A stretch of DNA of 64,000 nucleotides. It comes from an uncultured Gammaproteobacteria bacterium (lineage in GTDB: Bacteria; Patescibacteriota; Microgenomatia; PFEM01; DATLAM01). The position numbers were made by a program, and so were the translations under genes. Shown here one piece after another: positions 1 to 32,764 of this stretch. How positions within the stretch are numbered: the stretch's first letter is position 1; every line of letters begins with the position of its first letter. The notes under the pieces are model-generated. The model did no database searches. It saw only the letters and a list, made by a program, of their open reading frames with translations, and was not told where the DNA came from. Where the stretch lies: assembly GCA_964566925.1 (NCBI GenBank), contig CAZMIZ010000003.1, positions 30,792 through 94,791 on the forward strand, read 5' to 3'.

Positions 1-875
1 GAAATAAAATCGATCAATTATTGGGTCGTTGGGAAGATGGAAAACCAGTCGATGAGGAGGTTGCTTCTGGTGATGGAAGTGTCCTTGAAGAAAGTGCAAA
101 ATTAGATGGAGCTAATATTTGGGCGCTTAGCGGGTTTAACCATGGCGATCTGATAAAAACCGTCGTCGGCCAAAAAAGAATTCTCGAAATTTTAGGCATC
201 AATAATACAGAAATAACCGAACAGCCAAGCTTTTCTTTTGAACCCGCCCTGGTTCTTACTCTGGCTTCTCCGGCAACTTTGAGGGTAACTGACCCTTTAG
301 GTCGACAGGCTGGTGCCCAAATCTATCTCAGTGAAATTCCTGACGCTATATTCTCAACTCAAGAGAAGACAATCATTATTCCTAAAGCCAGAGATGGAAA
401 ATATAAAATTGAAGTTCTCGGAGAAAATGATGGCGGCTCCTATCAGCTTTTAATTGGACAGTTAACTTACGATCAGGATCTTTGGATTTCATATAAAGGT
501 AAAATTAAATCAGGTGATTCGAATGATTATGCTTTCATTTACGATGCCACTCTCCAAACAACAAGCTTCCATCTTAGCAAACTTGTCAATTTAAAAATTA
601 ATTCTCTCCTTCATCAAATCCGGAAACAAAAGATTAGATCCTACATTAAAGCAAGACTAACTGGTAAAGTTGTCAGAATTATTGGTAAAACATGGCCTTT
701 GCCCATGCTTTTGAATTTTGGAATGAATAAGCGAGCAGCTAAGTTTACCGAAAAAGCAATAATAAAAACTTCGGAAGCAATTAGGTATGCGGAGAGGTCT
801 AATCCTGATTCTCTTCCTAATCTCCGGGAAATAACGGATCTTCTGGCCCAGCTCCACCAGCTTTTGGGAGGTTAA
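1..875 (+). CDS. Hypothetical protein, 5'-partial; frame is open to window edge and the track ORF begins at a TTG at 21
   Basis: Long ORF in frame 3 with no upstream stop before position 1. No motif recognised. C-terminus ...LAQLHQLLGG. Confidence 0.5.
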   Translation, partial: NKIDQLLGRWEDGKPVDEEVASGDGSVLEESAKLDGANIWALSGFNHGDLIKTVVGQKRILEILGINNTEITEQPSFSFEPALVLTLASPATLRVTDPLGRQAGAQIYLSEIPDAIFSTQEKTIIIPKARDGKYKIEVLGENDGGSYQLLIGQLTYDQDLWISYKGKIKSGDSNDYAFIYDATLQTTSFHLSKLVNLKINSLLHQIRKQKIRSYIKARLTGKVVRIIGKTWPLPMLLNFGMNKRAAKFTEKAIIKTSEAIRYAERSNPDSLPNLREITDLLAQLHQLLGG

Positions 876-1211
876 AACTAAAAGGGCGACTTAAATTCCT
901 TGTAAATATTTGGTAAAATAACGTTATCTGATAAACTTAGAAGCCAGAGGAAGAGCCACCTGCCTTGGCTGCCGACACATGAGATATGCTCCAGTCGGGT
1001 CCCTTATGGACTGGGCTCGCTCACACCACGATAAATTAGACCATCCTCCTTATAAACCTTCTACAGAGCCGGACCAACACAGATCGTTCACTCTTGATCT
1101 GCCTCAACAGACCCTAGAGATGTCTGCTTCAGCAATGTTTGTAAGAATTGCGAACGAGAGAGAACTGCTACATGTGGAAAAATATTCTCCTTCTGGCGCC
1201 AAAGAATGAAG

Positions 1212-1280
1212 ATAACTACCAGCGAAGTCTTGAACCTCTTTGCCCAGCTCCACCAGCTTTTGGGGAATGATTATCTATGA
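1212..1280 (+). pseudogene. Degraded duplicate of the 3' end of the 1..875 gene (encodes ...EVLNLFAQLHQLLGNDYL*); the small ORF 979..1209 may be a frameshifted upstream piece of the same relic
   Basis: 24-nt exact nucleotide repeat gcccagctccaccagcttttggg at 847-869 and 1242-1264. Translated peptide AQLHQLLG is shared. Frame-1 peptide VRIANERE resembles AIRYAERS of the intact gene. Confidence 0.35.
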
Positions 1281-1891
1281 AGGGCCTGTGTCCAACCATC
1301 AAGGGTTATCAATTCTTTCTCATGAGCCTTACGTAAAGAGGAAAGGTTAATCGGCACCCTTAACTCTCTGGCTGCAACTGCGATATCCACAACTGATATT
1401 TTCTGACCAGAAAAAGGAACTAGTGCCCTATTAACTAATGGGTGACGGTCTGGATACCGGTCATCTTTAACACCAGGATATTCTTGAATTGTAGAACCAA
1501 GGATCCCAAAAATGTTCTCGTTCGTTTTATCCTGAGTCAGATAATAGGCCGCCAGAGCTTCTTCACTGGTAGCCACAAAGCCTGGTTTACTCTGAATTCC
1601 TACCTCTAAAACCTTACTCGCAATAACCAAGCCTGGAAGATCAAGGGAGTCATAAAAACCGAAAGCCTCAACGCATACCTTTCCTGCTTCATCCTGAATT
1701 CCCAAACCGCTTAAGATTCTCTCTTTTGTTCCAATAGTCATCCTTCTGGCTCCAATTACCACTCTCCCATCAATAACTCTTTCTTTTCCCCCCTCATCAA
1801 TCCGAATTTCTTGAGTTTCAGAAGCTGCCAGAACAATTGGCGGAGAAAAATATACTTCCTCTGTAGATCCTGCTGCTTCTCTTCGAACCAT
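1271..1891 (-). CDS. Hypothetical protein, 206 aa
   Basis: ORF with strong RBS (AGAGGGG) and a consensus promoter cassette upstream. No recognisable motif. Confidence 0.55.
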   Translation of the reverse strand: MVRREAAGSTEEVYFSPPIVLAASETQEIRIDEGGKERVIDGRVVIGARRMTIGTKERILSGLGIQDEAGKVCVEAFGFYDSLDLPGLVIASKVLEVGIQSKPGFVATSEEALAAYYLTQDKTNENIFGILGSTIQEYPGVKDDRYPDRHPLVNRALVPFSGQKISVVDIAVAARELRVPINLSSLRKAHEKELITLDGWTQALHR

Positions 1892-1963
1892 AACCCCTCT
1901 TTAAAAAAACAGCTGCCCTTGAGGCAGCAAGGTTTTTATAACATTATCCTTTCGCTTTGTCAA
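1892..1963 (-). promoter_or_regulatory. Promoter cassette: -35 TTGACA (1958-1963), 17-nt spacer, -10 TATAAA (1935-1940), then perfect hairpin GCTGCC-CTTGA-GGCAGC (1912-1928) plus T7 run and RBS
   Basis: Read directly. About 88% identical over 61 nt to the cassette at 2549-2609. The hairpin lies 16 nt after the stop of the upstream gene, so it could also act as its terminator. Confidence 0.55.
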
Positions 1964-2531
1964 TTTCTGCGTAATAATCCCTAATCGTCCTTCTCTCCGC
2001 TTTCGCCCAATTTTTCCCGTCTTTTCTCCATCTTCTAGTTATTCGGTCGTAAGCAGTCTTTCCCATATTGGTGGTAAAAGCGTCGATAAAAGCCGCGGCG
2101 ATAATCACAAAACCTCTCCTACTGTCCCTAAGGCTTCTGTATCTCCTTGCTACCCAGCACGACAAAGGAAAACGTTCTTCAAAAGTCATTCCCTGAATCC
2201 TATCTTCTGTTGCCCATTCGATTCTCTTCTGAACTTCTTCCCCGCTCGGCTCCCAAACCAGAGTGTAACTTTGCCCTGTTTCAGGGTGAGAGACTTCCAC
2301 TTGACCGCGCTCGCTAACATAGATAGGAAGCCTTGGAGGCGTTAATGGCTCTTCAAAAGTCACCTCACCCTCTATTGTTTCTTGGCTTTTTACTATTACC
2401 CCAGAGGTAGGCAATTCTAAATAGCCACTTTTTGCATCCTCGCCTACATTGACAATCACTTGAGGTTCTTCGATTAAAACAGAACGGCCTAAGGGAAGTT
2501 CTCTCTCTCCTTTTATACTGATCGGTGGCAT
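1944..2531 (-). CDS. Hypothetical protein, 195 aa, basic C-terminus
   Basis: ORF with RBS AAAGGA and the same promoter cassette upstream. No recognisable motif. Confidence 0.55.
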   Translation of the reverse strand: MPPISIKGERELPLGRSVLIEEPQVIVNVGEDAKSGYLELPTSGVIVKSQETIEGEVTFEEPLTPPRLPIYVSERGQVEVSHPETGQSYTLVWEPSGEEVQKRIEWATEDRIQGMTFEERFPLSCWVARRYRSLRDSRRGFVIIAAAFIDAFTTNMGKTAYDRITRRWRKDGKNWAKAERRTIRDYYAEIDKAKG

Positions 2532-2609
2532 TTATTTTTCCTTTCTCTAAAAAAATGGCTGCCCTTGAGGCAGCAAGCTTTTTATAACACTATCCCTTCT
2601 ACTTGTCAA
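2532..2609 (-). promoter_or_regulatory. Second copy of promoter cassette: -35 TTGACA (2604-2609), 17 nt, -10 TATAAA (2581-2586), hairpin GCTGCC-CTTGA-GGCAGC (2558-2574), T/A runs on both sides
   Basis: Read directly; near-identical to 1903-1963. Confidence 0.55.
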
Positions 2610-2641
2610 GAAAGTTATCAAAAAATAAAAACCTTTACCCC

Positions 2642-2670
2642 TTGACCTTATAGTAAAAAACTATTAATAT
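2642..2670 (+). promoter_or_regulatory. Divergent promoter TTGACC-17-TAATAT for the 2682 gene; near-leaderless (ATG about 5 nt after the predicted TSS, no SD)
   Basis: Hexamers and spacing read directly. Confidence 0.45.
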
Positions 2671-2681
2671 CTTCCCAAACC

Positions 2682-3368
2682 ATGAGAGAACCAGATCGGG
2701 GAGAAAAAGGGCTACCAGTATTGTCTCCTCTTGAAGCAGGAACAGTCTTAGCTATTCGTGTAGAAGGAAGGCTGTTTCCATCTCCTGATAGAGAAAGTGA
2801 TCTTTTTAGGGTAGTCCCTCTGGAACTTACCAAAGGAACCTTTTCACTTTGCCAAAGAGCCCTTTATAGAAATGCCAAAGACACTCTTGGCCGATATCCC
2901 AGCTTGATGGAAAATCCCTTGTTAGTTGACATTTCTCAAGCTGGATGGGATAGATTCGCAGACAGTCAACTTAGGGCGTCGATTTGGTGGAATAACCAGG
3001 CTCGAGAGGTTCTTTTTGGAAAACCAGTCTCAACTCCAGCTGATTGGCTAGAATTCGACAAAGAAAAAACAAATCTGGAAATTCCTATCAGGGGCGCTAA
3101 AGCCCTGGCCTTGGGGATCTATACTTCCATTTGTGAATTAGACGCTGTGGCTCCACAATCTAGTTCAAAGGATGAAGCTGAATCAAGAAGGGTGATAAAA
3201 ATCTTTTTGGGAGGTTTAGTGGATGTTTTGAATATCCTCGATGAACATAAAGTTTCTATTGATTCAGAGAAAATTGAAGTTTTGCAAGAAGTCCAGAGAG
3301 AAGTTCAAATTCATCCCTACGCCGCTTTCCCTCTTCAACCTAGGCTTCAGGCTCGTTTGGAGGAATAG
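2682..3368 (+). CDS. Hypothetical protein, 228 aa
   Basis: ORF only; no motif recognised. Confidence 0.5.
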   Translation: MREPDRGEKGLPVLSPLEAGTVLAIRVEGRLFPSPDRESDLFRVVPLELTKGTFSLCQRALYRNAKDTLGRYPSLMENPLLVDISQAGWDRFADSQLRASIWWNNQAREVLFGKPVSTPADWLEFDKEKTNLEIPIRGAKALALGIYTSICELDAVAPQSSSKDEAESRRVIKIFLGGLVDVLNILDEHKVSIDSEKIEVLQEVQREVQIHPYAAFPLQPRLQARLEE

Positions 3369-3940
3369 AAGTCCCGTCCGGTGGATTTCCTGGCTATTAA
3401 GTACCAATTAAGACCCAGTCGTCGAGACTCCATTTCTTCAAAGCCAATCTTTTCGCATCGCCTAAGAGCACCCTTGATCGCTGGACCAGAAATTTCAGAG
3501 ACGATTAGCCTCCCTCCTGGTTTCAAAAGAGGCAAGCTCTGATTAAGAACCTCTGGGCCGCCGCCATAGCTTTGGACAAAAACCAAATCAAAGGTTTCTG
3601 CTTGAAATGGAGGCTTATTCCCATCAGCCACAAAAAACCATTCCCTAGTTTCTCTCCTTAAAAACAGGTCAATCATCCGGCAAATTCTTCTTGAAGCTTT
3701 CTGAATGAAGGGATCAATATCAAGCGATATAAAAAGACCTTGCTCGCCGGTCTTTCTTGAGTAAAAGCGCCAGAGTGGATAGCCAGCCCCCATCTCTAAA
3801 ACTTTTTCTCCTTCCTGGATAGCAGCCACTTGGCCGATAGCTCGATGATAAAGCGGCCTGGCTTCAAATAAGCCAACCATCGGTAAGATAAACCGCCAAC
3901 CATAGAGGTCAATTTTAGCGTCTACCTCTTTACTCATCAA
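3347..3940 (-). CDS. Class I SAM-dependent methyltransferase
   Basis: Motif I VLEMGAGYP and post-I LKPGGRLIV, a Rossmann MTase pattern. Confidence 0.65.
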   Translation of the reverse strand: MMSKEVDAKIDLYGWRFILPMVGLFEARPLYHRAIGQVAAIQEGEKVLEMGAGYPLWRFYSRKTGEQGLFISLDIDPFIQKASRRICRMIDLFLRRETREWFFVADGNKPPFQAETFDLVFVQSYGGGPEVLNQSLPLLKPGGRLIVSEISGPAIKGALRRCEKIGFEEMESRRLGLNWYLIARKSTGRDFYSSKRA

Positions 3941-3946
3941 TCCCTC

Positions 3947-4504
3947 CTATTTTGTGTCTGTCATCCCGGTAACAGTTAGATAAGCACACCGCTTCATTCC
4001 CAACAAGAACCTATCTCCTCTTTTGCTCGCTACAGTTGCTTCGGCTAACAAGGTCTCTGGATCCTTGTCTAGGTCAGAAGGAATTATGGGGTAGCACGAC
4101 CAGCCAAATTCTGTTTCACTATCTTCAACTATTAAACGAAAAACTTCTTCGCCGTATCGAGTGTTTAACTCTTGAATCATTCTTCGGGTAGCTTTCTCAG
4201 CCTTCCCGCCTCCTCCGGGCATCAGAGGAATGGCTACGGCCTGAATCTTTCCCCAAATCTCAGAACTAAGCTCTCCATTAACCACCCAGCCTTGAGGCGC
4301 CCCTACTGATTCTAGGGGCCAGGCTCTTTGCCCATGGTATACCTGCGCAAAAGTTTGAGGATCAAGATATTCCTCTTCCGCTCTTTCGGGAGTAACGTCT
4401 TCCGGTTCTGACCATAAAAACCCCACTATTCTGGGCCCTTTATCTTGACCGCCAAGAGAATATACCGGAATACCCCGATTATCATTTTCTAAAGAACCAC
4501 TCAT
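3947..4504 (-). CDS. Hypothetical protein; weak resemblance to the LOG/SLOG Rossmann family (PGGGGKAEKATRRM resembles PGGxGTxEE). Start taken at MSGSL; the longer 4558 start would abut the tRNA
   Basis: ORF plus one motif-level resemblance only. Confidence 0.4.
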   Translation of the reverse strand: MSGSLENDNRGIPVYSLGGQDKGPRIVGFLWSEPEDVTPERAEEEYLDPQTFAQVYHGQRAWPLESVGAPQGWVVNGELSSEIWGKIQAVAIPLMPGGGGKAEKATRRMIQELNTRYGEEVFRLIVEDSETEFGWSCYPIIPSDLDKDPETLLAEATVASKRGDRFLLGMKRCAYLTVTGMTDTK

Positions 4505-4569
4505 TTTATCCTTCTTAAAAATTAAATTGGCAGGACGGGCTTTGGCGAGGCAGATCATTGACCTTTTTG

Positions 4570-4643
4570 TGGACGATGCAGGACTTGAACCTGCGACCCC
4601 TGCAATGTGAATGCAGTGCTCTGGCCAACTGAGCTAATCGTCC
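4570..4643 (-). tRNA. tRNA-Val (anticodon CAC)
   Basis: Minus-strand GGACGAT-TA-GCTC-AGTTGGCC-AGAGC-A-CTGCA-TTCACAT-TGCAG-GGGTC-GCAGG-TTCAAGT-CCTGC-ATCGTCC-A. Canonical cloverleaf with T-loop TTCAAGT. CCA not encoded. Confidence 0.85.
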
Positions 4644-26457: not shown

Positions 26458-27045
26458 ATGGCAGAAACAAAAGGTTTAGCTCCAGCACCCCCAAAAGACC
26501 TCCAGCCTCTCCCAGAAATACCAGATCTTCAACAAAAATTTGAAGACCTTTTACAACAGTTTGTTTCTGAAGGGGGCAATCAAGAGGTTAGACAAGAAAT
26601 CGAAACATTTCAAGATGTAAATGAAGAGGGGGTTGAGCAAGCAATGTTCGTGGCGCCAGGTTGGTCAAAAGAAAGTCCTCCTAATGTTGGTGTCGCTTTT
26701 GAGGTTAGCCGAGGTCGCGCCAGCTACACCGGTAAATTTTATGAAAGCAATCCTCCCGCTTACGGAAGAGTAACAGCCAGTGAATTTCATTTCGATTCAG
26801 AAGGGGAAGGTAAAGGCATTTCAGGACCGCCAGGAATATTCGACCCACTAGGAGAGACATTAACTGATCGGTATGATGCTCCAATCATTCAAGCAGTAGC
26901 CAACGTTTTTAAAAAGAGAATCTTACATTCTTTAGAGGCTCGGGATCAAAAGAGAATAAGGGAACTAGTTCAAAAGGGTTATCGGCGCCGAAAGGGCTAT
27001 CCTCAAGTCTTCGATAAATTCTACGAACCCCAACCTGGCAGGTGA
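26458..27045 (+). CDS. Hypothetical protein, 195 aa
   Basis: ORF 9 nt after the previous gene. Confidence 0.45.
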   Translation: MAETKGLAPAPPKDLQPLPEIPDLQQKFEDLLQQFVSEGGNQEVRQEIETFQDVNEEGVEQAMFVAPGWSKESPPNVGVAFEVSRGRASYTGKFYESNPPAYGRVTASEFHFDSEGEGKGISGPPGIFDPLGETLTDRYDAPIIQAVANVFKKRILHSLEARDQKRIRELVQKGYRRRKGYPQVFDKFYEPQPGR

Positions 27046-27071
27046 AAGCAAGATTTTAATTTCTCAAAAAC

Positions 27072-27602
27072 TTAACCACCTGGACAGATATCTTCGGCCC
27101 AAAGGCCGCGGTCATTTTCTCTTGCCTCCTGTTCGGCTTCTCTAAATAACTCTTGATATTTGACATCCGGCGGATAGGTGGCGGTTTGAGCGTATCCCTG
27201 CCTTACCAGATAATCGTTGACGAATAAGTTATCCACATAGACATAGCGCAAAAGCCGATGATACTGATCCGTTTCGGAAACATCCTTTTCTAGCCTAACC
27301 TCTTTGCCTTCAACCAATTCTTTGTTCTTTTCGGTGGCCTCATCAGCCAAACAGCCGCTTTCCGGCGTATCAATGCCAATATAACGCACTCTTTCCCCAC
27401 CCTCGACTTCAATCGTATCCCCATCAATCACCCGAGTAACTGTGAATGTCTGTTCTTCAACCGGAGACGTCTCGATTGTCGGAGTTGGCTCTGAAGTAGT
27501 TTCTTTTGGACTAAAACCCTGGCCAAGAGCAAACCCAATAAGGAGCAACGCCCCACCAAGGATTACAAAAAGGATTTTCTTAGGAATCTTCACCTTAGTC
27601 AT
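27072..27602 (-). CDS. Membrane-anchored thermonuclease (staphylococcal nuclease/SNase family)
   Basis: N-terminal TM segment, then VTRVIDGDTIEV...RVRYIGIDTPE SNase core. Confidence 0.75.
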   Translation of the reverse strand: MTKVKIPKKILFVILGGALLLIGFALGQGFSPKETTSEPTPTIETSPVEEQTFTVTRVIDGDTIEVEGGERVRYIGIDTPESGCLADEATEKNKELVEGKEVRLEKDVSETDQYHRLLRYVYVDNLFVNDYLVRQGYAQTATYPPDVKYQELFREAEQEARENDRGLWAEDICPGG

Positions 27603-27885
27603 TTTTCTCCGCTCGACGGAGCTTAAGTTTTAGTTTTTTGAAAAAAAGAACGAAAGAGAAAATGACATACAAATAAACAACAATAACCCAATCGTCGTAT
27701 AAACCTCGAAGTGTAGGGGGCGTAACTAAAATGAAAAAGAATAATGCAAGGGGGAGATTCAAAAATGCGAATAAATTGATAATTCGCACTCTATTCATTG
27801 GGTATATAATAACATTTTTCGCGGAATTCTTACTTTTGCCATTTTTAGCCCCCGAATTTACACTGAGTTTGCCAAAGTGCCACAA
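27595..27885 (-). CDS. Small membrane protein, 96 aa, overlapping the thermonuclease start by 8 nt
   Basis: ORF with a TM segment. Confidence 0.4.
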   Translation of the reverse strand: MWHFGKLSVNSGAKNGKSKNSAKNVIIYPMNRVRIINLFAFLNLPLALFFFILVTPPTLRGLYDDWVIVVYLYVIFSFVLFFKKLKLKLRRAEKND

Positions 27886-27894
27886 TTTTAATCT

Positions 27895-28815
27895 CTACCT
27901 GTCTGGAGCGACTTCGCAGGATTCCTTAACAATTTCTAAAATATAATTAATCTTTTCCTCTTTTAAGACATCAATCCACCAAAGAGGAGTTTTCCCCCAT
28001 TCATAAGAAGCTGGGACTCTCTTAAAAAGCTTCTCCTTGTCTGATTTAAGCTTTTTCTTCCTGACATAGATTCTAAGTTTGTTTTGGTATACGTGAATAG
28101 AGGCAAAATTGTACCAATTAAATTTGTAACCGATGTAAAACTTAACTGGCTTTTCCTTGATATTCTCATCAATAGAGAAAATCTTTTCTCTTAACTTCTC
28201 AAACAACTCCCTAATTTTAGGCGAGGCCTTTTTCCTGTGATCTTCGATTGTATATTCTCTCACCTCACGACTAACGGTGGCGACGGCCTTACCTTTGGTT
28301 ACTGTTTTGATAGATTCTTTAGCTTCAGGGGATTTAAGTTGATTGAAAAGAATAAGATTATCTTCAAAAATTTCCACTTCCCACAACTCTATTGGCAAAT
28401 CCTTAAAACCAATTGCCCCTCGTTGATGAGGGGTAAAAGAAGGGGCGACGAATAAAACCCTGGATTGAGACCAGTCGACATCGCCGCGCTTTAGATTCTT
28501 TTTCTTCTTTTCATTGTATTCAAGAATGAAATCGGACTTATTATTGAGCATCAAGGAGAGATAGTTCAAACCTTGATCAACAACACTAAAACTTTGATCT
28601 CTCTTATATTCGATGACAACAAAGGAGCGCGTTTCTGAATCAAAAGCTAGGGTATCGATGTAGAAGTTATGGATTCCGAATTCACTGCTGATAAATTCTA
28701 AACCAAAAATTATTTCAAGGTTTTCCTCGGTTAGTTTCTGTAAATCCTTTTCAAAATCAAATTTCTTTTCTTTAACCTGGCTGAGTTTCTTATTCTTTAT
28801 CTGAAAAATCGGCAT
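27895..28815 (-). CDS. Putative PD-(D/E)xK-fold nuclease-like protein, 306 aa
   Basis: N-terminal FYIDTLAFD...(16 aa)...VVIEYK matches hh-D...ExK; Lys-rich C-terminal half. Motif-level only. Confidence 0.45.
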   Translation of the reverse strand: MPIFQIKNKKLSQVKEKKFDFEKDLQKLTEENLEIIFGLEFISSEFGIHNFYIDTLAFDSETRSFVVIEYKRDQSFSVVDQGLNYLSLMLNNKSDFILEYNEKKKKNLKRGDVDWSQSRVLFVAPSFTPHQRGAIGFKDLPIELWEVEIFEDNLILFNQLKSPEAKESIKTVTKGKAVATVSREVREYTIEDHRKKASPKIRELFEKLREKIFSIDENIKEKPVKFYIGYKFNWYNFASIHVYQNKLRIYVRKKKLKSDKEKLFKRVPASYEWGKTPLWWIDVLKEEKINYILEIVKESCEVAPDR

Positions 28816-28847
28816 TTGGGGATATTATAGCATGAGCAGGGTGGAAG

Positions 28848-29624
28848 TTAAGAGATCTTTTCTTGAATCATTGGCCCAAGCTGTTCAACCTCATACAAAA
28901 TCTCAGCGTTATTATCAGTAGTAATTTTATATCTCGCGTTTTGAATCTCAACGATTGTGGAAAAGCTTAACTTCCAAGCCTCCTCTCCCTCCGTTTTTAT
29001 GAAATTTATGACAGGAATGTTTGGAAGAGCATTGTTTTCTATGGCAAGGCCTATTGCCTTTGACACCCTTCGCTTTCGACGATCTCTCCATTCCTGTAGC
29101 CTAACCTGTTCTTCGTAAATAATTGTTGCAGTAAGAACAGTAAGGATTATTACAAGGATGTAGATTATTGCCTGTAAATATGTATAAAAGAGTGGAGGGT
29201 TCATTGACAAAGACATCCCAAGCCAAATAAAAATTAAGCCCAAAAATAGTATAGCCACTATAAAAATGAGAACCAGCCTATGATGATCTATTCTAAAAGG
29301 CGGCCCAACTCGTTTAACTTTCTTAATCTCTTCCGGTGTATGTCTTTGAGGGTTTATACGATCAAGATAGTCTCTGTATTTTTTATTCTGCCACCAAAAT
29401 GGCTGAATCGAAATAAATGGTCTCTGTCTATACCAGAAAATTACAAGAAATGAGACTAACAGCGTCAAAACTGACGCCGCTAGAAATACTTCTCTATTTA
29501 AGAATATTCCAGCCGTAGTACCTGGAAACAACAGATAAAAAAACTGAATCAGCGGGAGCGCATAAGAGAGAAAGCCGGCTAAGCTTTTAGAAATTTCATT
29601 TACACTTTCTTTTGTTTTGTCCAT
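28848..29624 (-). CDS. Membrane protein (about 4 TM) with a cytoplasmic C-terminal domain, 258 aa
   Basis: Hydrophobic segments; no motif recognised. Confidence 0.5.
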   Translation of the reverse strand: MDKTKESVNEISKSLAGFLSYALPLIQFFYLLFPGTTAGIFLNREVFLAASVLTLLVSFLVIFWYRQRPFISIQPFWWQNKKYRDYLDRINPQRHTPEEIKKVKRVGPPFRIDHHRLVLIFIVAILFLGLIFIWLGMSLSMNPPLFYTYLQAIIYILVIILTVLTATIIYEEQVRLQEWRDRRKRRVSKAIGLAIENNALPNIPVINFIKTEGEEAWKLSFSTIVEIQNARYKITTDNNAEILYEVEQLGPMIQEKIS

Positions 29625-29635
29625 TAATTTATTAA

Positions 29636-29667
29636 ATCAAAAAACAAAGCCTGCTTTCTGAGCAGGC
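29636..29667 (-). terminator. Rho-independent terminator after the RM gene (stem GCCTGCT/AGCAGGC, then TTTGTTTTTTGATTT)
   Basis: Hairpin 29649-29667 plus T-run read on the minus strand. Confidence 0.6.
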
Positions 29668-29773
29668 AACTTGATTGTACACTTTAAGTTATTAAAGGTC
29701 AACTTTTCGTAATTCCAATTTCTCGATTTAAATCAAATTTTTCTCAACTTCCGGGTGAAGTTTGGCGAGTTGG

Positions 29774-32287
29774 CTATGTCGTTATATCGCCGAATTCACT
29801 TCTTAGCTTTTTAATAGCTTGTTGTGCCCCCCATTTCTTTCCAAATGCTTGGCGTATTCTTTCCGAAATATATTTTCTTTTTTTACGACTTTTAGAGACG
29901 GGTAGATAAATTTCTTTCCATCTATTCCCAATATTCGGAAGAGTTGTTTCTATAAAGATTTTGTTGCGCAGCTGTTTTTGGGCTAGTTCATGAGATAGTA
30001 AATAAATTAAGTAGTAAGGGTTTATATCCCACTGGTTCTTATCATTGATTACCCTGATTACAAGCAATTCCCTGGTTAATAAAATTTCGTTTTCGTCGGG
30101 AGAAACCATCGCTACTGTGCCAATTCTGTAACTTCCTCTTCTAACGAAAATAATATCTTTTTCTTTAAGGCTAACTCCGCTGCCCTTTATCTTTAAATAC
30201 ATCTTTCGGGGAATCAAAGACGTCGGGTTTTTGTAAATCTCCCAATTAACAATATCCTTAACCCTTATATACGGAACTTCCCCTCTGCCTTTATAATGTC
30301 CAGGAGGAGAACCATGTCCATCGGAATATTCGACTACTTTATGCCTAATTAATTTCGATAAGCCTACCATCTCAAAACTTCCTTCCTTGGCAATTTTTTT
30401 CAGCTCTTTTTCTCTTTGCCCCCAATAATAGCGAGGAATGTAGATGTCCGTTTTAATTGCGGAGGTGTTGATAGCAAAAAGATTTTTATTACCTTTTTTA
30501 TCTGGGTTGTTTATTTCTTCCCTTATTATTTCTGTGTCGTCCCATAATTCTTCTGTAAAGCCTTTTGTCTTTTGGTCAAATCTATATATTGGCTTGCCGT
30601 TGTGGTCATGTCCAACCTCCTCGGCTACTGCCATGATAATTTTCTCTTCTTGGGGTTTGTTTTTTTGTAACACTAAAAGCATAGTTTTAGCATTACAGTG
30701 GGGTCTAAATGTATTGTGTGCAAGATCAATAATTGCTTTTATATTGTGCTTTTTTAGAAATTGTAAGATATAGCGGGTCTTTGGCGCATGGAAATATGTC
30801 TCAGGTAAAACTATGCCCAATATACCCCCATCTTTAAGAAGTTGTAAGCATCTCTCAATAAAGAGAATTTGAGGTTCCTCGCTATCTTTAAGTTGGGCTG
30901 TTTTCGCATAGCCTGTCCCTGATTTTTTCCACCGGTAAGCAAGGTCATATTGTTTAAGTTTTTCTTCTCCTTCTACTTTTATCTTTGAACCAAAGGGAGG
31001 GTTAGTCAATACAATATCAAACGAGCCAAGCTGTATTTTGTCTCTAGCTTGCATATCCCAATTTTTGGGACTATCAAGGCTGTCTTCACAAAAAATACCG
31101 CCTTTTCCATCCCCAACTATCGCCATATAAGCCTTAGTGACTTTACTCAAGAAATAATCTTTATCGACGCCCTTAAAATTAGAATTGGCCACTGTTAGCT
31201 TTTCTAGCTCGATATTAGTTTTCTTCCATTCATATCTTTTCCCTTGATTCTCAATCTTATTCCATACATACCTTAAACTGTCAATCAAAAATCCTCCTGA
31301 CCCACAAGCAGGATCAATGATAAGATGTTTTGGCGAGGGATCAACTAATCTTACAAGGGTTTGAATCACGTTCCGCGGAGTAAAAAATTGTCCCTGAGAT
31401 CCCTTTAACGCTGGGCCTATAAAAACTTCAAAGGCCTCAGCTATAACATCCCTCTCTGCGTCCGTTAAACAGAAGTTTTGCAGTTCACCCACAATGTAAG
31501 TTAAGGATCGGGCATCCAAATTTAGTGAGTCGCCTACATCTATAATCTCGGGGTATCTTTTCTTAACTTTCTTAAACAGGTGAAGAATTCTTTCTTTTAC
31601 TTCTCCAGTGCTCTCTTTTATTCCAGCCCTGAATTGTACTATATTGTCTTGTTTAGTAAATTTTTCATCATAAATCTTGCAAAAAATAACGTTAATCAAC
31701 TGTTGAGCAAGAACCTCGTCTCTAGTAGCGCCCACAGCCATTCCTGCTAAATAATTCCTCATAGCATTAAACGTAGATTTTAAGTTACGAGGAGGCTTTA
31801 AGTCTTTCCTTTTAAACAAGCCTATATCTGCTATTCTTTGGCCTGCTCGAGGGATAATTGGAATCTCCTCGAAGTAAACTTTTCCCTCTTTCTCTGTTTT
31901 TTTGAGAAAGAGCCTTTCCTTTCCGTTAAACCAAACACCTAGTTGAGCTTCGGACAGTCTCAGGTAGTCTTTCAACTGTGATTCTCCGTCTTTTCTAGTC
32001 TTTTTTTTACATTCAACTATTATCCATAAATTATCATCGATCTTTCTCTCTGACTTAAAAACAGCAATATCTACCGGGTATTCTTTCTTTTTATCAGAAG
32101 GTCTTGCTTTTACTCTCCATTGGGAATGGGTCTGTATTTGTGTTTTCTTATAGCCATAATCTTCGACAAGGGATTTAGCGAATACCTGAACAGCCTCGAT
32201 TTCTTCTGGAGTTGCCTTTACCCACTTATTAGTAATATAGTCTTGGATGTGCCCTTCCTTAGTTTCAACCCTTTTCTTCTTTGCCAT
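29774..32287 (-). CDS. Single-chain Type IIG (MmeI-like) restriction-modification enzyme: N-terminal PD-(D/E)xK endonuclease, gamma-class N6-adenine MTase, and a C-terminal target-recognition region
   Basis: VDIAVF...IIVECKK nuclease motif, MTase motif I IDPACGSGGFL, motif IV NPPFG, about 380 aa after motif IV. Region markedly AT-rich. Confidence 0.65.
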   Translation of the reverse strand: MAKKKRVETKEGHIQDYITNKWVKATPEEIEAVQVFAKSLVEDYGYKKTQIQTHSQWRVKARPSDKKKEYPVDIAVFKSERKIDDNLWIIVECKKKTRKDGESQLKDYLRLSEAQLGVWFNGKERLFLKKTEKEGKVYFEEIPIIPRAGQRIADIGLFKRKDLKPPRNLKSTFNAMRNYLAGMAVGATRDEVLAQQLINVIFCKIYDEKFTKQDNIVQFRAGIKESTGEVKERILHLFKKVKKRYPEIIDVGDSLNLDARSLTYIVGELQNFCLTDAERDVIAEAFEVFIGPALKGSQGQFFTPRNVIQTLVRLVDPSPKHLIIDPACGSGGFLIDSLRYVWNKIENQGKRYEWKKTNIELEKLTVANSNFKGVDKDYFLSKVTKAYMAIVGDGKGGIFCEDSLDSPKNWDMQARDKIQLGSFDIVLTNPPFGSKIKVEGEEKLKQYDLAYRWKKSGTGYAKTAQLKDSEEPQILFIERCLQLLKDGGILGIVLPETYFHAPKTRYILQFLKKHNIKAIIDLAHNTFRPHCNAKTMLLVLQKNKPQEEKIIMAVAEEVGHDHNGKPIYRFDQKTKGFTEELWDDTEIIREEINNPDKKGNKNLFAINTSAIKTDIYIPRYYWGQREKELKKIAKEGSFEMVGLSKLIRHKVVEYSDGHGSPPGHYKGRGEVPYIRVKDIVNWEIYKNPTSLIPRKMYLKIKGSGVSLKEKDIIFVRRGSYRIGTVAMVSPDENEILLTRELLVIRVINDKNQWDINPYYLIYLLSHELAQKQLRNKIFIETTLPNIGNRWKEIYLPVSKSRKKRKYISERIRQAFGKKWGAQQAIKKLRSEFGDITT

Positions 32288-32356
32288 ATTCGGGTTTTGT
32301 TCGTATATCTAGACTACCTTCTTTAAGAATCTTTGTCAAGAGCTAGTCTCGTCCTA

Positions 32357-32389
32357 ATTCTACCTTATAAATTTGCTTTCAGCAACTTA
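32357..32389 (-). promoter_or_regulatory. Promoter/operator module copy 1 (TTGCTG-17-TAGAAT, with inverted repeat TTGCT-TTC-AGCAA over the -35) upstream of the RM gene
   Basis: 29-nt repeat 32361-32389 identical at 28 of 29 positions to 32736-32764. Confidence 0.5.
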
Positions 32390-32713: not shown

Positions 32714-32731
32714 CTCTTTCACCTCGCTCTT

Positions 32732-32764
32732 ATTTTACCCTATAAATTTGCTTTCAGCAACTTA
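32732..32764 (-). promoter_or_regulatory. Promoter/operator module copy 2 (TTGCTG-17-TAAAAT with the same TTGCT-TTC-AGCAA palindrome) upstream of the small regulator ORF
   Basis: See copy 1. Confidence 0.5.

Follow-up and report, generated by a model that had tools for sequence, protein, structure and literature searches.

Organization of the locus

Two small orphan genes in a 64,000-nucleotide stretch of DNA from an uncultured bacterium (contig CAZMIZ010000003.1; we call the whole stretch the window) are each preceded by a copy of the same short element, referred to below as the module or cassette, in which promoter hexamers are followed by a hairpin and a T-run. A repeat search across the 64 kb returns it as a 66-nt direct repeat at 1898-1963 and 2544-2609, with copies that are 86% identical and 646 bp apart. 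Pairwise alignment of the 61-nt core (1903-1963 and 2549-2609) gives 53 of 61 identical positions, or 87%, and thereby bears out the original prediction, made from the letters of the DNA, which had placed the repeat here at about 88% identity. The mismatches in the core fall in the promoter spacer (five), the discriminator (one) and the segment between stem and T-run (two).

Both copies lie on the minus strand and share one layout, composed of TTGACA, a 17-nt spacer ending in TGT, TATAAA, 6 nt, the stem-loop GCTGCC-TCAAG-GGCAGC, 2 nt, a run of seven T (T7), purines resembling a Shine-Dalgarno (SD) sequence and ATG. The discriminator between the -10 hexamer and the stem is AAGCTT or AACCTT in the two copies. 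The modules had been said to precede a 206-aa and a 195-aa open reading frame (ORF), which they do, once they are read on the minus strand: copy 2 leads into the 195-aa ORF and copy 1 into the 206-aa ORF. The features are as follows.

2604..2609, minus strand: -35 hexamer TTGACA of copy 2, read from the sequence
2581..2589, minus strand: extended -10 of copy 2 (TGT + TATAAA), at a 17-nt spacer from the -35, with the joint top promoter score in the window
2558..2574, minus strand: stem-loop GCTGCC-TCAAG-GGCAGC of copy 2; the predicted +1 is G2574, the seventh nucleotide after the -10, preceded by T
2549..2555, minus strand: T7 run of copy 2 (U7 in the RNA), 2 nt (CA) past the stem
1944..2531, minus strand: 195-aa orphan ORF behind copy 2, with an SD-like AAAGGA at 2543..2538 and ATG at 2531..2529
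1958..1963, minus strand: -35 hexamer TTGACA of copy 1, within the final codons of the 195-aa ORF
1935..1943, minus strand: extended -10 of copy 1 (TGT + TATAAA), from the sequence and the promoter ranking
1912..1928, minus strand: stem-loop GCTGCC-TCAAG-GGCAGC of copy 1; the predicted +1 is G1928, and the stem-loop lies 16 nt past the stop of the 195-aa ORF
1903..1909, minus strand: T7 run of copy 1, 2 nt (TG) past the stem
1271..1891, minus strand: 206-aa orphan ORF behind copy 1, with the SD GAGGGG at 1899..1894
2642..2670, plus strand: divergent promoter-like site TTGACC-17-TAATAT from the promoter scan, for the 228-aa ORF (2682-3368), back to back with copy 2

Relative to the start codon, the repeat spans about -13 to -78 in copy 2 and about -7 to -72 in copy 1. 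The stop codon of the 195-aa ORF (1946..1944) falls inside the promoter spacer of copy 1. No co-directional element lies upstream of copy 2, since the divergent promoter-like site of the 228-aa ORF sits back to back with it.

The 195-aa and 206-aa proteins are unrelated to each other (BLASTP E>7), and alignment and BLASTP rule out that the repeat reflects paralogy of the two genes or a common upstream coding remnant. The module is rare. The 17-mer GCTGCCCTTGAGGCAGC occurs at exactly two sites in the 64 kb, even when three mismatches are allowed, against 0.16 expected, and none of 100 shuffles reaches two. A covariance model of the module, run over the window with filters off, recovers the two copies at 85 bits each and next a match of 15 bits.

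Promoter elements

The two window copies are the two top-scoring -35/-10 matches of the 64 kb in our own scan of both strands, each with 11 of 12 consensus positions plus the TG. They had been described as perfect promoters, which is slightly too strong: the last position of the -10 (TATAAA), at -7, is an A in both copies instead of the normally conserved T, and a TGn extended -10 is present. It is because of this A that a standard promoter scan skipped both copies. Start-site rules of the E. coli type should place the +1 at the first G of the stem (G2574 and G1928), and the seventh nucleotide past the -10 hexamer, which is this predicted +1, is the first stem base in all nine instances of the module compared below. 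The hairpin, earlier located at +8 to +25, is thus moved to the predicted 5' end of the transcript.

Conservation of the cassette in relatives

After three word-based searches and an exhaustive representative search, the total stands at two homologues for each of the two proteins. The 206-aa protein shares 65-66% identity with P0006 and P0007; for the 195-aa protein, the distant homologues P0008 and P0010 are 46% and 33-34% identical (phmmer, alignment). All of them have the module upstream. The contigs concerned (L009, L010, L011 and L012) were found via protein homology alone, independently of the DNA motif. In L009 and L010 (66 and 65% amino acid identity, respectively) the module lies directly upstream of the 206-aa orthologue, as TTGACAAACCAAAAAGATTATGTTATAAAAAATTTGCTGCCTCAAGGGCAGTTATTTTTT and TTGACAAATTAGAAAGATAATGTTATAAAAACTTTGCTGCCTCAAGGGCAGTGATTTTTTT; both contigs have a divergent NUMOD3-motif gene as upstream neighbour and no 195-aa gene. 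The module of the 195-aa homologue in L011 (46%) reads TTGACA-17-TAAGGT-ACAAGC-GCTGCC CCAAA GGCAGC-G-TTTTT, and that in L012 (33-34%) reads TTGACA-18-TAATTT-GAGGCT-GCTGCC TCCAA GGCAGT-TA-TTTTTT. The L012/L028 contig is syntenic with the window (FtsW-L21-L27-ParB-S26-methyltransferase-...-195-aa homologue), and on account of this synteny the 195-aa gene and its module are regarded as old residents of the locus. The module also stands before a third gene, in L010, before a fourth, in L011 (extended -10 only), and, in L017, before an HTH_31-like gene.

Together, the two window copies and seven copies from relatives (L009, L010a/b, L011a/b, L012 and L017) make up nine instances, on which all counts below are based. 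TGTTA (the TGn and the first two bases of the -10), GCTGCC, GGCAG and TTTT are invariant in 9/9. TTGACA is near-invariant, being found with a spacer of 17-18 nt in 8/9. At position 6 of the -10, the five closest copies share an A (TATAAA), and the four distant copies have a T (TAAGGT, TAATTT, TATATT, TATAAT). The distance between -10 and stem is 6 nt throughout (9/9) despite unrelated bases (AAGCTT, ACAAGC, GAGGCT, ACGAGT, CTTTCT), and a pyrimidine at -1 and a G at +1, which correspond to the preferred Y-1/R+1 start context, are found in every instance. Just as regularly, the T-run begins 1-2 nt past the stem. The loop varies (TCAAG five times, CCAAA, TCCAA, CTAGA and TCAAA), and spacer and discriminator are scrambled as well. 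The only substitution in the stem is a basal C to T in 6/9, which keeps a G·U pair on the gene strand and leaves A·C on the other strand. The invariance of the stem is not an artefact of the search, since four of the seven instances from outside the window were ascertained without the DNA. Because the stem shows no variation, a covariation test is uninformative.

The original prediction of a promoter-plus-hairpin cassette serving two unrelated genes is therefore upheld, with -35, extended -10, hairpin, T-run and spacings kept upstream of the orthologues. It had also named a generic dispersed repeat as an outcome that would overturn it; instead, the module is found twice in 64 kb and once in a 15.7-kb syntenic contig of a relative, always facing a start codon. 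From this low copy count in the window and in the relative contig it follows that the module is neither a general promoter type nor a dispersed repeat. Judged by where its copies stand, it marks a particular set of small orphan genes.

The module copies differ in what lies upstream of them. A co-directional gene ends about 0-20 nt from the -35 in four instances (window copy 1, L010b, L011a and L012); window copy 2, L009, L010a, L011b and L017 have an upstream gene that runs divergently or whose orientation is not demonstrably the same.

Copies within one genome resemble each other more than they resemble their orthologues. The two window copies are 85% identical, versus 57% and 67% for copy 2 and its orthologous modules, and L010a and L010b are 93% identical, versus 87% for the orthologous pair L010a-L009. 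The same ranking is obtained in the weakly constrained columns alone, whereas the two copies of L011 are not homogenised. These identities point to recent copying or gene conversion between paralogous promoters, with the caveat that the distant genomes are far more diverged overall.

Searches based on the DNA pattern were made as well. No copy of the module was found in viral, phage and plasmid collections. In a species-representative genome collection, a scan for the hairpin followed by T5 gave seven contigs, all unrelated, and a metagenome scan with a promoter-plus-stem pattern returned 14 loci. The same stem (GCTGCC-N5-GGCAG) stands 6 nt past an extended -10 in unrelated contigs, both stem and spacing being forced by the pattern. 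It lies ahead of a tRNA gene in L015, L018 and L019, in rRNA-leader-like sequences in L014, L020, L027 and L026, and ahead of what we read as an S-adenosylmethionine (SAM)-riboswitch-like leader in L022-L024. We treat L014, L015, L018-L020, L022-L024, L026 and L027 as coincidences forced by the pattern and not as members of the family. In L016, the stem and a T-run are located between an M23/LysM peptidase gene and a 115-aa orphan gene. L017 and L016/L021, which have the architecture with the T-run, may be independent of the family.

Two further observations concern the relatives. Proteins with the NUMOD3 DNA-binding motif, a motif family known from homing endonucleases, are encoded beside module genes at L009:252-920(-), L010:2-667(-) and L012:3890-4228(-), and no homologue of these proteins is found in the window. 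In L011 (2030-2110), P0008 probably begins further upstream than its called start (ATG 2105), as matches to the N-terminus of the window protein (RGERELPVGRSVL) are encoded in frame upstream of it; no ATG, GTG or TTG follows the preceding stop, which suggests a non-canonical start or a sequencing error.

Hairpin and T-run

The isolated stem-loop has a predicted folding energy of -11.3 kcal/mol in window copy 2 and of -9 to -12 kcal/mol across the instances. It dominates the predicted ensemble of the 5' untranslated region (UTR) in 7/9 instances (probability of pair 2-16 >0.9). A T4-T7 run follows the hairpin in all nine instances, always with 1-2 non-T nucleotides in between. The last two bases of the stem are GC in 3/9 and GU in 6/9, and with a 2-nt gap the GC does not abut the U-tract.

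A terminator scan calls both copies on the gene strand, as a hairpin followed by T5-T7, and makes terminator-like calls on both strands. The hairpin/U-tract/bubble-edge (HUB) definition of a 2026 preprint asks for GC at the 3' base of the stem (-11/-10) and RU at -2/-1, and in this point the module departs from it. The earlier description of T-runs on both strands as a good terminator in either direction has to be reduced: on the gene strand a T7 follows after a 2-nt gap, while the opposite (plus) strand offers only a T5 after a 4-nt gap, making the bidirectional case weak. That the hairpin of copy 1 doubles as terminator of the upstream gene is plausible given its position 16 nt past the stop of the 195-aa ORF. 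Of the RNA families in Rfam, only tRNA-Val reaches the gathering threshold in the window, and none matches 1800-2700 at E <= 1.

The two genes and their surroundings

No family in Pfam, PHROGs, NCBIfam or PADLOC is assigned to the 195-, 206-, 228-, 203-, 284- and 76-aa ORFs. Structure prediction of the two module proteins, as had been suggested, yields low-confidence AlphaFold2 models with predicted local distance difference test (pLDDT) scores of 52.9 and 45.4, and Foldseek finds no match for them in the PDB at E < 0.06. Family searches of the window proteins show no regulator gene adjoining the window copies.

By its gene content, the window is an ordinary segment of a bacterial chromosome: it encodes IleRS, FtsW, L21, L27, ParB, a signal peptidase, tRNA-Val, a mur/fts (dcw/mur) cluster, GlmS and a DUF4012 protein. 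Exact look-ups led to a single 18-kb Logan contig, and for two other proteins of the window they gave no record. The tRNA-Val(CAC) gene lies at 4569-4643 on the minus strand, and its 3' side (1-4558) is occupied by a run of orphans (203, 197 [methyltransferase], 228, 195, 206, 76 and 284 aa). The relatives keep the methyltransferase and the 195-aa family at this tRNA-adjacent position, and not the 203-, 228- and 206-aa genes. The region beside tRNA-Val looks like a variable region.

Within this region, a perfect 23-nt direct repeat, GCCCAGCTCCACCAGCTTTTGGG, is present at 846-868 and 1242-1264 (plus strand), 396 nt apart, with 0 expected by chance. Its first copy encodes the C-terminus of the 284-aa ORF (...AQLHQLLGG*), and its second copy gives, in frame, AQLHQLLGNDYL*, a reading that stops at 1280 and overlaps with the 206-aa ORF, which is convergent to it. 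This arrangement looks like an insertion of about 396 nt, with the 76-aa ORF (979-1209) inside, into the 3' end of the 284-aa gene, the target being duplicated.

A third site with the same architecture, and other repeats

We scanned the window for every hairpin with a T-run that has a promoter-like match at most 15 nt upstream. Three sites passed, and in each of them exactly 6 nt separate the -10 and the stem; they are the two modules and one further site:

29640..29702, minus strand: TTGACC-17-TACAAT-CAAGTT-GCCTGCT CAGAA AGCAGGC-TTTGTTTTTT, between an 837-aa N6-methylase/Eco57I-like restriction-modification (R-M) gene and a 258-aa orphan ORF without an obvious SD

Beyond the common architecture, this site does not align with the module. 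Because the architecture recurs here with a different stem, structure seems to count for more than one particular DNA word, which speaks for a rationale at the level of RNA.

Another pair of repeats occurs at 32348-32389 and 32723-32764 (read on the minus strand). These 42-nt copies are 88% identical, 375 bp apart and contain TAAGTTGCTGAAAGCAAATTTATA(A/G)GGTA(G/A)AAT, in which a small hairpin and T-run lead into TAGAAT or TAAAAT, resembling a -10. Of the two copies, one is located right before a small ORF and the other about 60-100 nt upstream of the 837-aa R-M gene, which has a TTGACA of its own in between. The pair may be another case of promoter/terminator reuse. The nearby region of about 27000-32300 has a GC content of 0.36-0.38 compared to about 0.43, and is low in this respect. 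Its products include the 837-aa N6_Mtase/HSDR_N/Eco57I-type protein, a homologue of staphylococcal nuclease and a DUF5655/NucS-like protein, and the region has the look of a restriction or defence islet that was acquired.

Proposed function

The architecture of the module, its conservation upstream of orthologous genes and its reuse before unrelated ones make it well supported, at the level of sequence comparison, that we are dealing with a real, conserved and reused regulatory module of a broadly familiar kind. As to its function, we favour a lineage-specific σ70-type promoter-leader cassette that would work mainly at the RNA level and combine protection of the 5' end, insulation from upstream transcription and a U-rich region for ribosome loading. 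We give this reading a probability of roughly 0.45. Start site, mRNA stabilisation, insulation and weak termination of its own transcripts are all what we infer from the sequence features described above.

RNA polymerase would bind TTGACA and TGnTATAAA and start at the first G of the stem, so that the mRNA would open with a blunt, triphosphorylated, GC-rich stem-loop of 17 nt and lead through a single-stranded U-rich stretch to the SD and start codon. Pyrophosphohydrolase and the RNases that sense the 5' end require unpaired nucleotides there, and the 5'-terminal stem-loop would therefore protect the mRNA from decay that depends on this end. Read-through from upstream would be stopped by hairpin and U-run, which together would serve as intrinsic terminator or insulator and so give each small gene its own defined transcript. 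Transcripts from the cassette's own promoter would meet a weakened terminator and mostly read through, owing to the gap of 1-2 non-U nucleotides and the GU stem base in 6/9 instances. Within genomes, the cassette appears to have been copied or homogenised, and it now precedes at least four to five unrelated orphan genes. The invariant 6-nt spacing, filled with unrelated bases, fits an element bound to the extreme 5' end. Among the roles offered with the original prediction (5' mRNA stabiliser, operator, and conditional terminator or attenuator), this fixed distance favours a 5'-terminal RNA element.

Several points weigh against this proposal. Its key step, the start at the first base of the stem, is derived from E. 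coli rules, and the -10 of the five closest copies carries an A at the usually conserved -7 position. In copy 1, the minimum-energy fold of the first 75 nt breaks the 5' hairpin (pairing probability 0.28). No compensatory change is seen in the stem, five of its six pairs being invariant even where the proteins are 33-46% identical, whereas the stem of a stabiliser or terminator that matters by its structure alone should have drifted through compensatory changes. The U-run, which a stabiliser does not need, is kept where the upstream gene is divergent (window copy 2, L009, L010a and L011b). Hairpin and U7 at +1 to +26 could terminate much of the cassette's own output. The original prediction also had the two proteins as probably among the most strongly expressed in the window; this is not supported here, and such a terminator-like leader could lower their output. 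Moreover, L010b, L011b and L017 were found by searches that required or favoured the stem sequence. The invariance of the stem hints at a partner that recognises its sequence, and lends some weight to the operator and protein-binding readings discussed next.

Alternative explanations

The persistence of the U-run in 9/9 instances, including those without a co-directional upstream gene, would be explained directly if the module were a leader attenuator, in which a promoter-proximal intrinsic terminator ends most transcripts at about +24 to +27 and read-through sets or regulates the expression of the orphan genes, for example through a stem-binding factor, NTP (nucleoside triphosphate) levels or start-site choice. 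The gene-strand terminator calls in both copies agree with this, and an invariant stem would suit an RNA-binding antiterminator. We nevertheless judge it unlikely: the stem opens the transcript and so leaves no room for an alternative, antiterminating pairing, the gap of 1-2 non-U nucleotides and the GU base in 6/9 are both tied to weak termination by published rules, and a near-consensus promoter feeding a constitutive terminator would be wasteful, with no candidate factor identified. About equally doubtful is a DNA operator, in which the 17-bp palindrome GCTGCC-N5-GGCAGC (+1 to +17) would be bound by a dimeric repressor, e.g., of the helix-turn-helix (HTH)/XRE type, in charge of a small regulon of orphan genes, the RNA hairpin being a by-product. 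Here, invariant half-sites flank a variable 5-bp centre (TCAAG, CCAAA, TCCAA, CTAGA or TCAAA), the centres of the half-sites are 11 bp or one helical turn apart, a site right behind the -10 is a classical place for a repressor, and the same site stands before several unrelated genes, as in a regulon; the HTH_31-like product of the gene behind the site in L017 (E = 2e-4, below the Pfam cut-off) could mean autoregulation. However, an operator leaves the conserved T-run and the rigid distance to the -10 unexplained, since operators of one regulon usually vary in position. The sole stem change breaks the symmetry of the DNA and keeps the pairing of the RNA, the non-homologous third site has the same architecture with a different stem, and no regulator lies beside the window copies. 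No homologue of the L017 HTH protein is encoded in the 64 kb, and L017 itself was retrieved by a pattern that requires the stem.

Two further readings are very improbable. If the module were only a terminator of its neighbours, possibly bidirectional, with its promoter likeness due to incidental AT-richness, the terminator-like calls on both strands and the location of copy 1 at 16 nt past the 195-aa ORF would be accounted for, yet TTGACA is kept 17-18 nt from TGnTA in 8/9 instances across very divergent loci, the five instances with a divergent or not demonstrably co-directional upstream gene may have nothing to terminate, and the plus strand offers a 4-nt gap, a T5 and, in 6/9, an A·C-mismatched stem. 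A mobile or recombination element has an equally small chance, whether as a repeat like a miniature inverted-repeat transposable element (MITE) or repetitive extragenic palindrome (REP), or as recombination sites flanking a cassette with the 195-aa gene (integron-like or with a circular intermediate). The 195-aa gene is indeed exactly bracketed by two direct repeats, L009 and L010 have the unit of module and 206-aa gene without the 195-aa gene, and the paralogous copies look homogenised. Against this stand the two copies per 64 kb, always in one orientation and 17-25 nt upstream of a start codon, without terminal inverted repeats or target duplications, the central 6-bp stem being the only inverted repeat; the synteny of the 195-aa gene and module in distant relatives, where they appear ancestral and not a recent insertion; and the lack of an integrase, an attC-like structure or an Rfam match. 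Taken with the divergent contexts, the small number of copies and the synteny, the conservation of -35 and -10 leaves practically no room for the terminator-only and the mobile-element or cassette readings. Mimicry of an anticodon stem-loop (loop CUCAAGG) was considered and rejected, as the loop is not conserved in the other instances.

A separate speculation concerns the identity of the stem. With a probability that we estimate as low, the invariant GCUGCC...GGCAG stem at the predicted +1 would be the recognition site of a dedicated trans-acting factor, which might be an RNA-binding protein acting in antitermination, stability or translation control, or a repressor of the DNA palindrome. If so, the module would define a lineage-specific regulon of small orphan proteins, and hairpin and U-run would form a regulated switch and not a passive stabiliser.

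If the promoter-leader reading is correct, the module is a compact (about 80 nt), dissectable expression cassette from a poorly understood, uncultivated lineage that is reused for several orphan genes, and a clean natural case of promoter reuse with orthologous conservation. A terminator-like hairpin right behind a promoter is of interest for current work on how initiation and termination are coupled, and on when a hairpin with a U-tract terminates and when it does not. In related metagenome-assembled genomes (MAGs), the motif could help to pick out orphan genes that are co-regulated or highly expressed, and it could be a candidate expression part for such organisms. The cassette says nothing on the function of the two proteins.

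Comparison with known systems

Like the intrinsic terminators of the HUB definition, the module has a GC-rich stem of 6-7 bp, a short loop and a U-run, and four instances are located just past a co-directional gene. According to a recent large-scale study, efficient termination requires a GC at the stem base directly against (U)7, as in the GC(U)7RU rule, and suffers when the C at -10 is lost (bioRxiv 10.64898/2026.05.29.728758). Unlike these terminators, the module lies at the predicted +1 downstream of a promoter, with a gap of 1-2 non-U nucleotides and mostly a GU base, features reported to lower termination. A further preprint describes, for bacterial genomes, a physical coupling between the signals that start and those that end transcription in neighbouring units (bioRxiv 10.64898/2026.08.19.745784); the module shares this theme only, and the match of its order, promoter first and hairpin at +1, is a lead and not a test.

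Operators of λ-type HTH repressors are palindromic sites of 17 bp. The module likewise has 17 bp with two 6-bp inverted half-sites, one helical turn apart and overlapping the predicted start. It differs in its conserved T-run, its fixed position, a substitution that preserves RNA pairing and not DNA symmetry, and in that no cognate regulator has been identified.

In its evolution, the module resembles reused promoters. Putative mobile promoters are defined by an identity of 80% or more, along 50 nt or more, upstream of genes in one genome that are not paralogues (Matus-Garcia, Nijveen and van Passel 2012; commentary PMC3575422). With 86% identity over 66 nt before genes of unrelated proteins, the module reaches this identity, without an associated insertion sequence, and some of the families described there occur in other taxa too, as the module does (PMC3575422). 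The surveyed interval of -150 to -50 is only partly overlapped by the module (about -13 to -78 and -7 to -72), which thus falls short in position. The module is also unlike them in that it extends over the -10 and the leader, separates into promoter, hairpin at the predicted +1 and U-run, and is orthologously conserved.

In its function, the module would resemble leaders with a 5'-terminal stem-loop. For RppH of B. subtilis, two or more nucleotides at the 5' end have to be unpaired; hairpins at this place block 5'-end-dependent decay and are well established as stabilisers of bacterial mRNAs, with ompA, papA and aprE as classical cases (review PMC3997798). In the leaders of E. coli ompA and papA and B. 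subtilis aprE, as predicted for the module, a strong promoter is followed by a stem-loop with almost no unpaired 5' nucleotides, an A/U-rich stretch and an SD. The leader of phage T7 gene 10 is another with a 5'-terminal stem-loop. The module departs from the known stabilisers in that its start is only predicted, its U-run is terminator-like, and a single hairpin sequence is reused and kept invariant across lineages.

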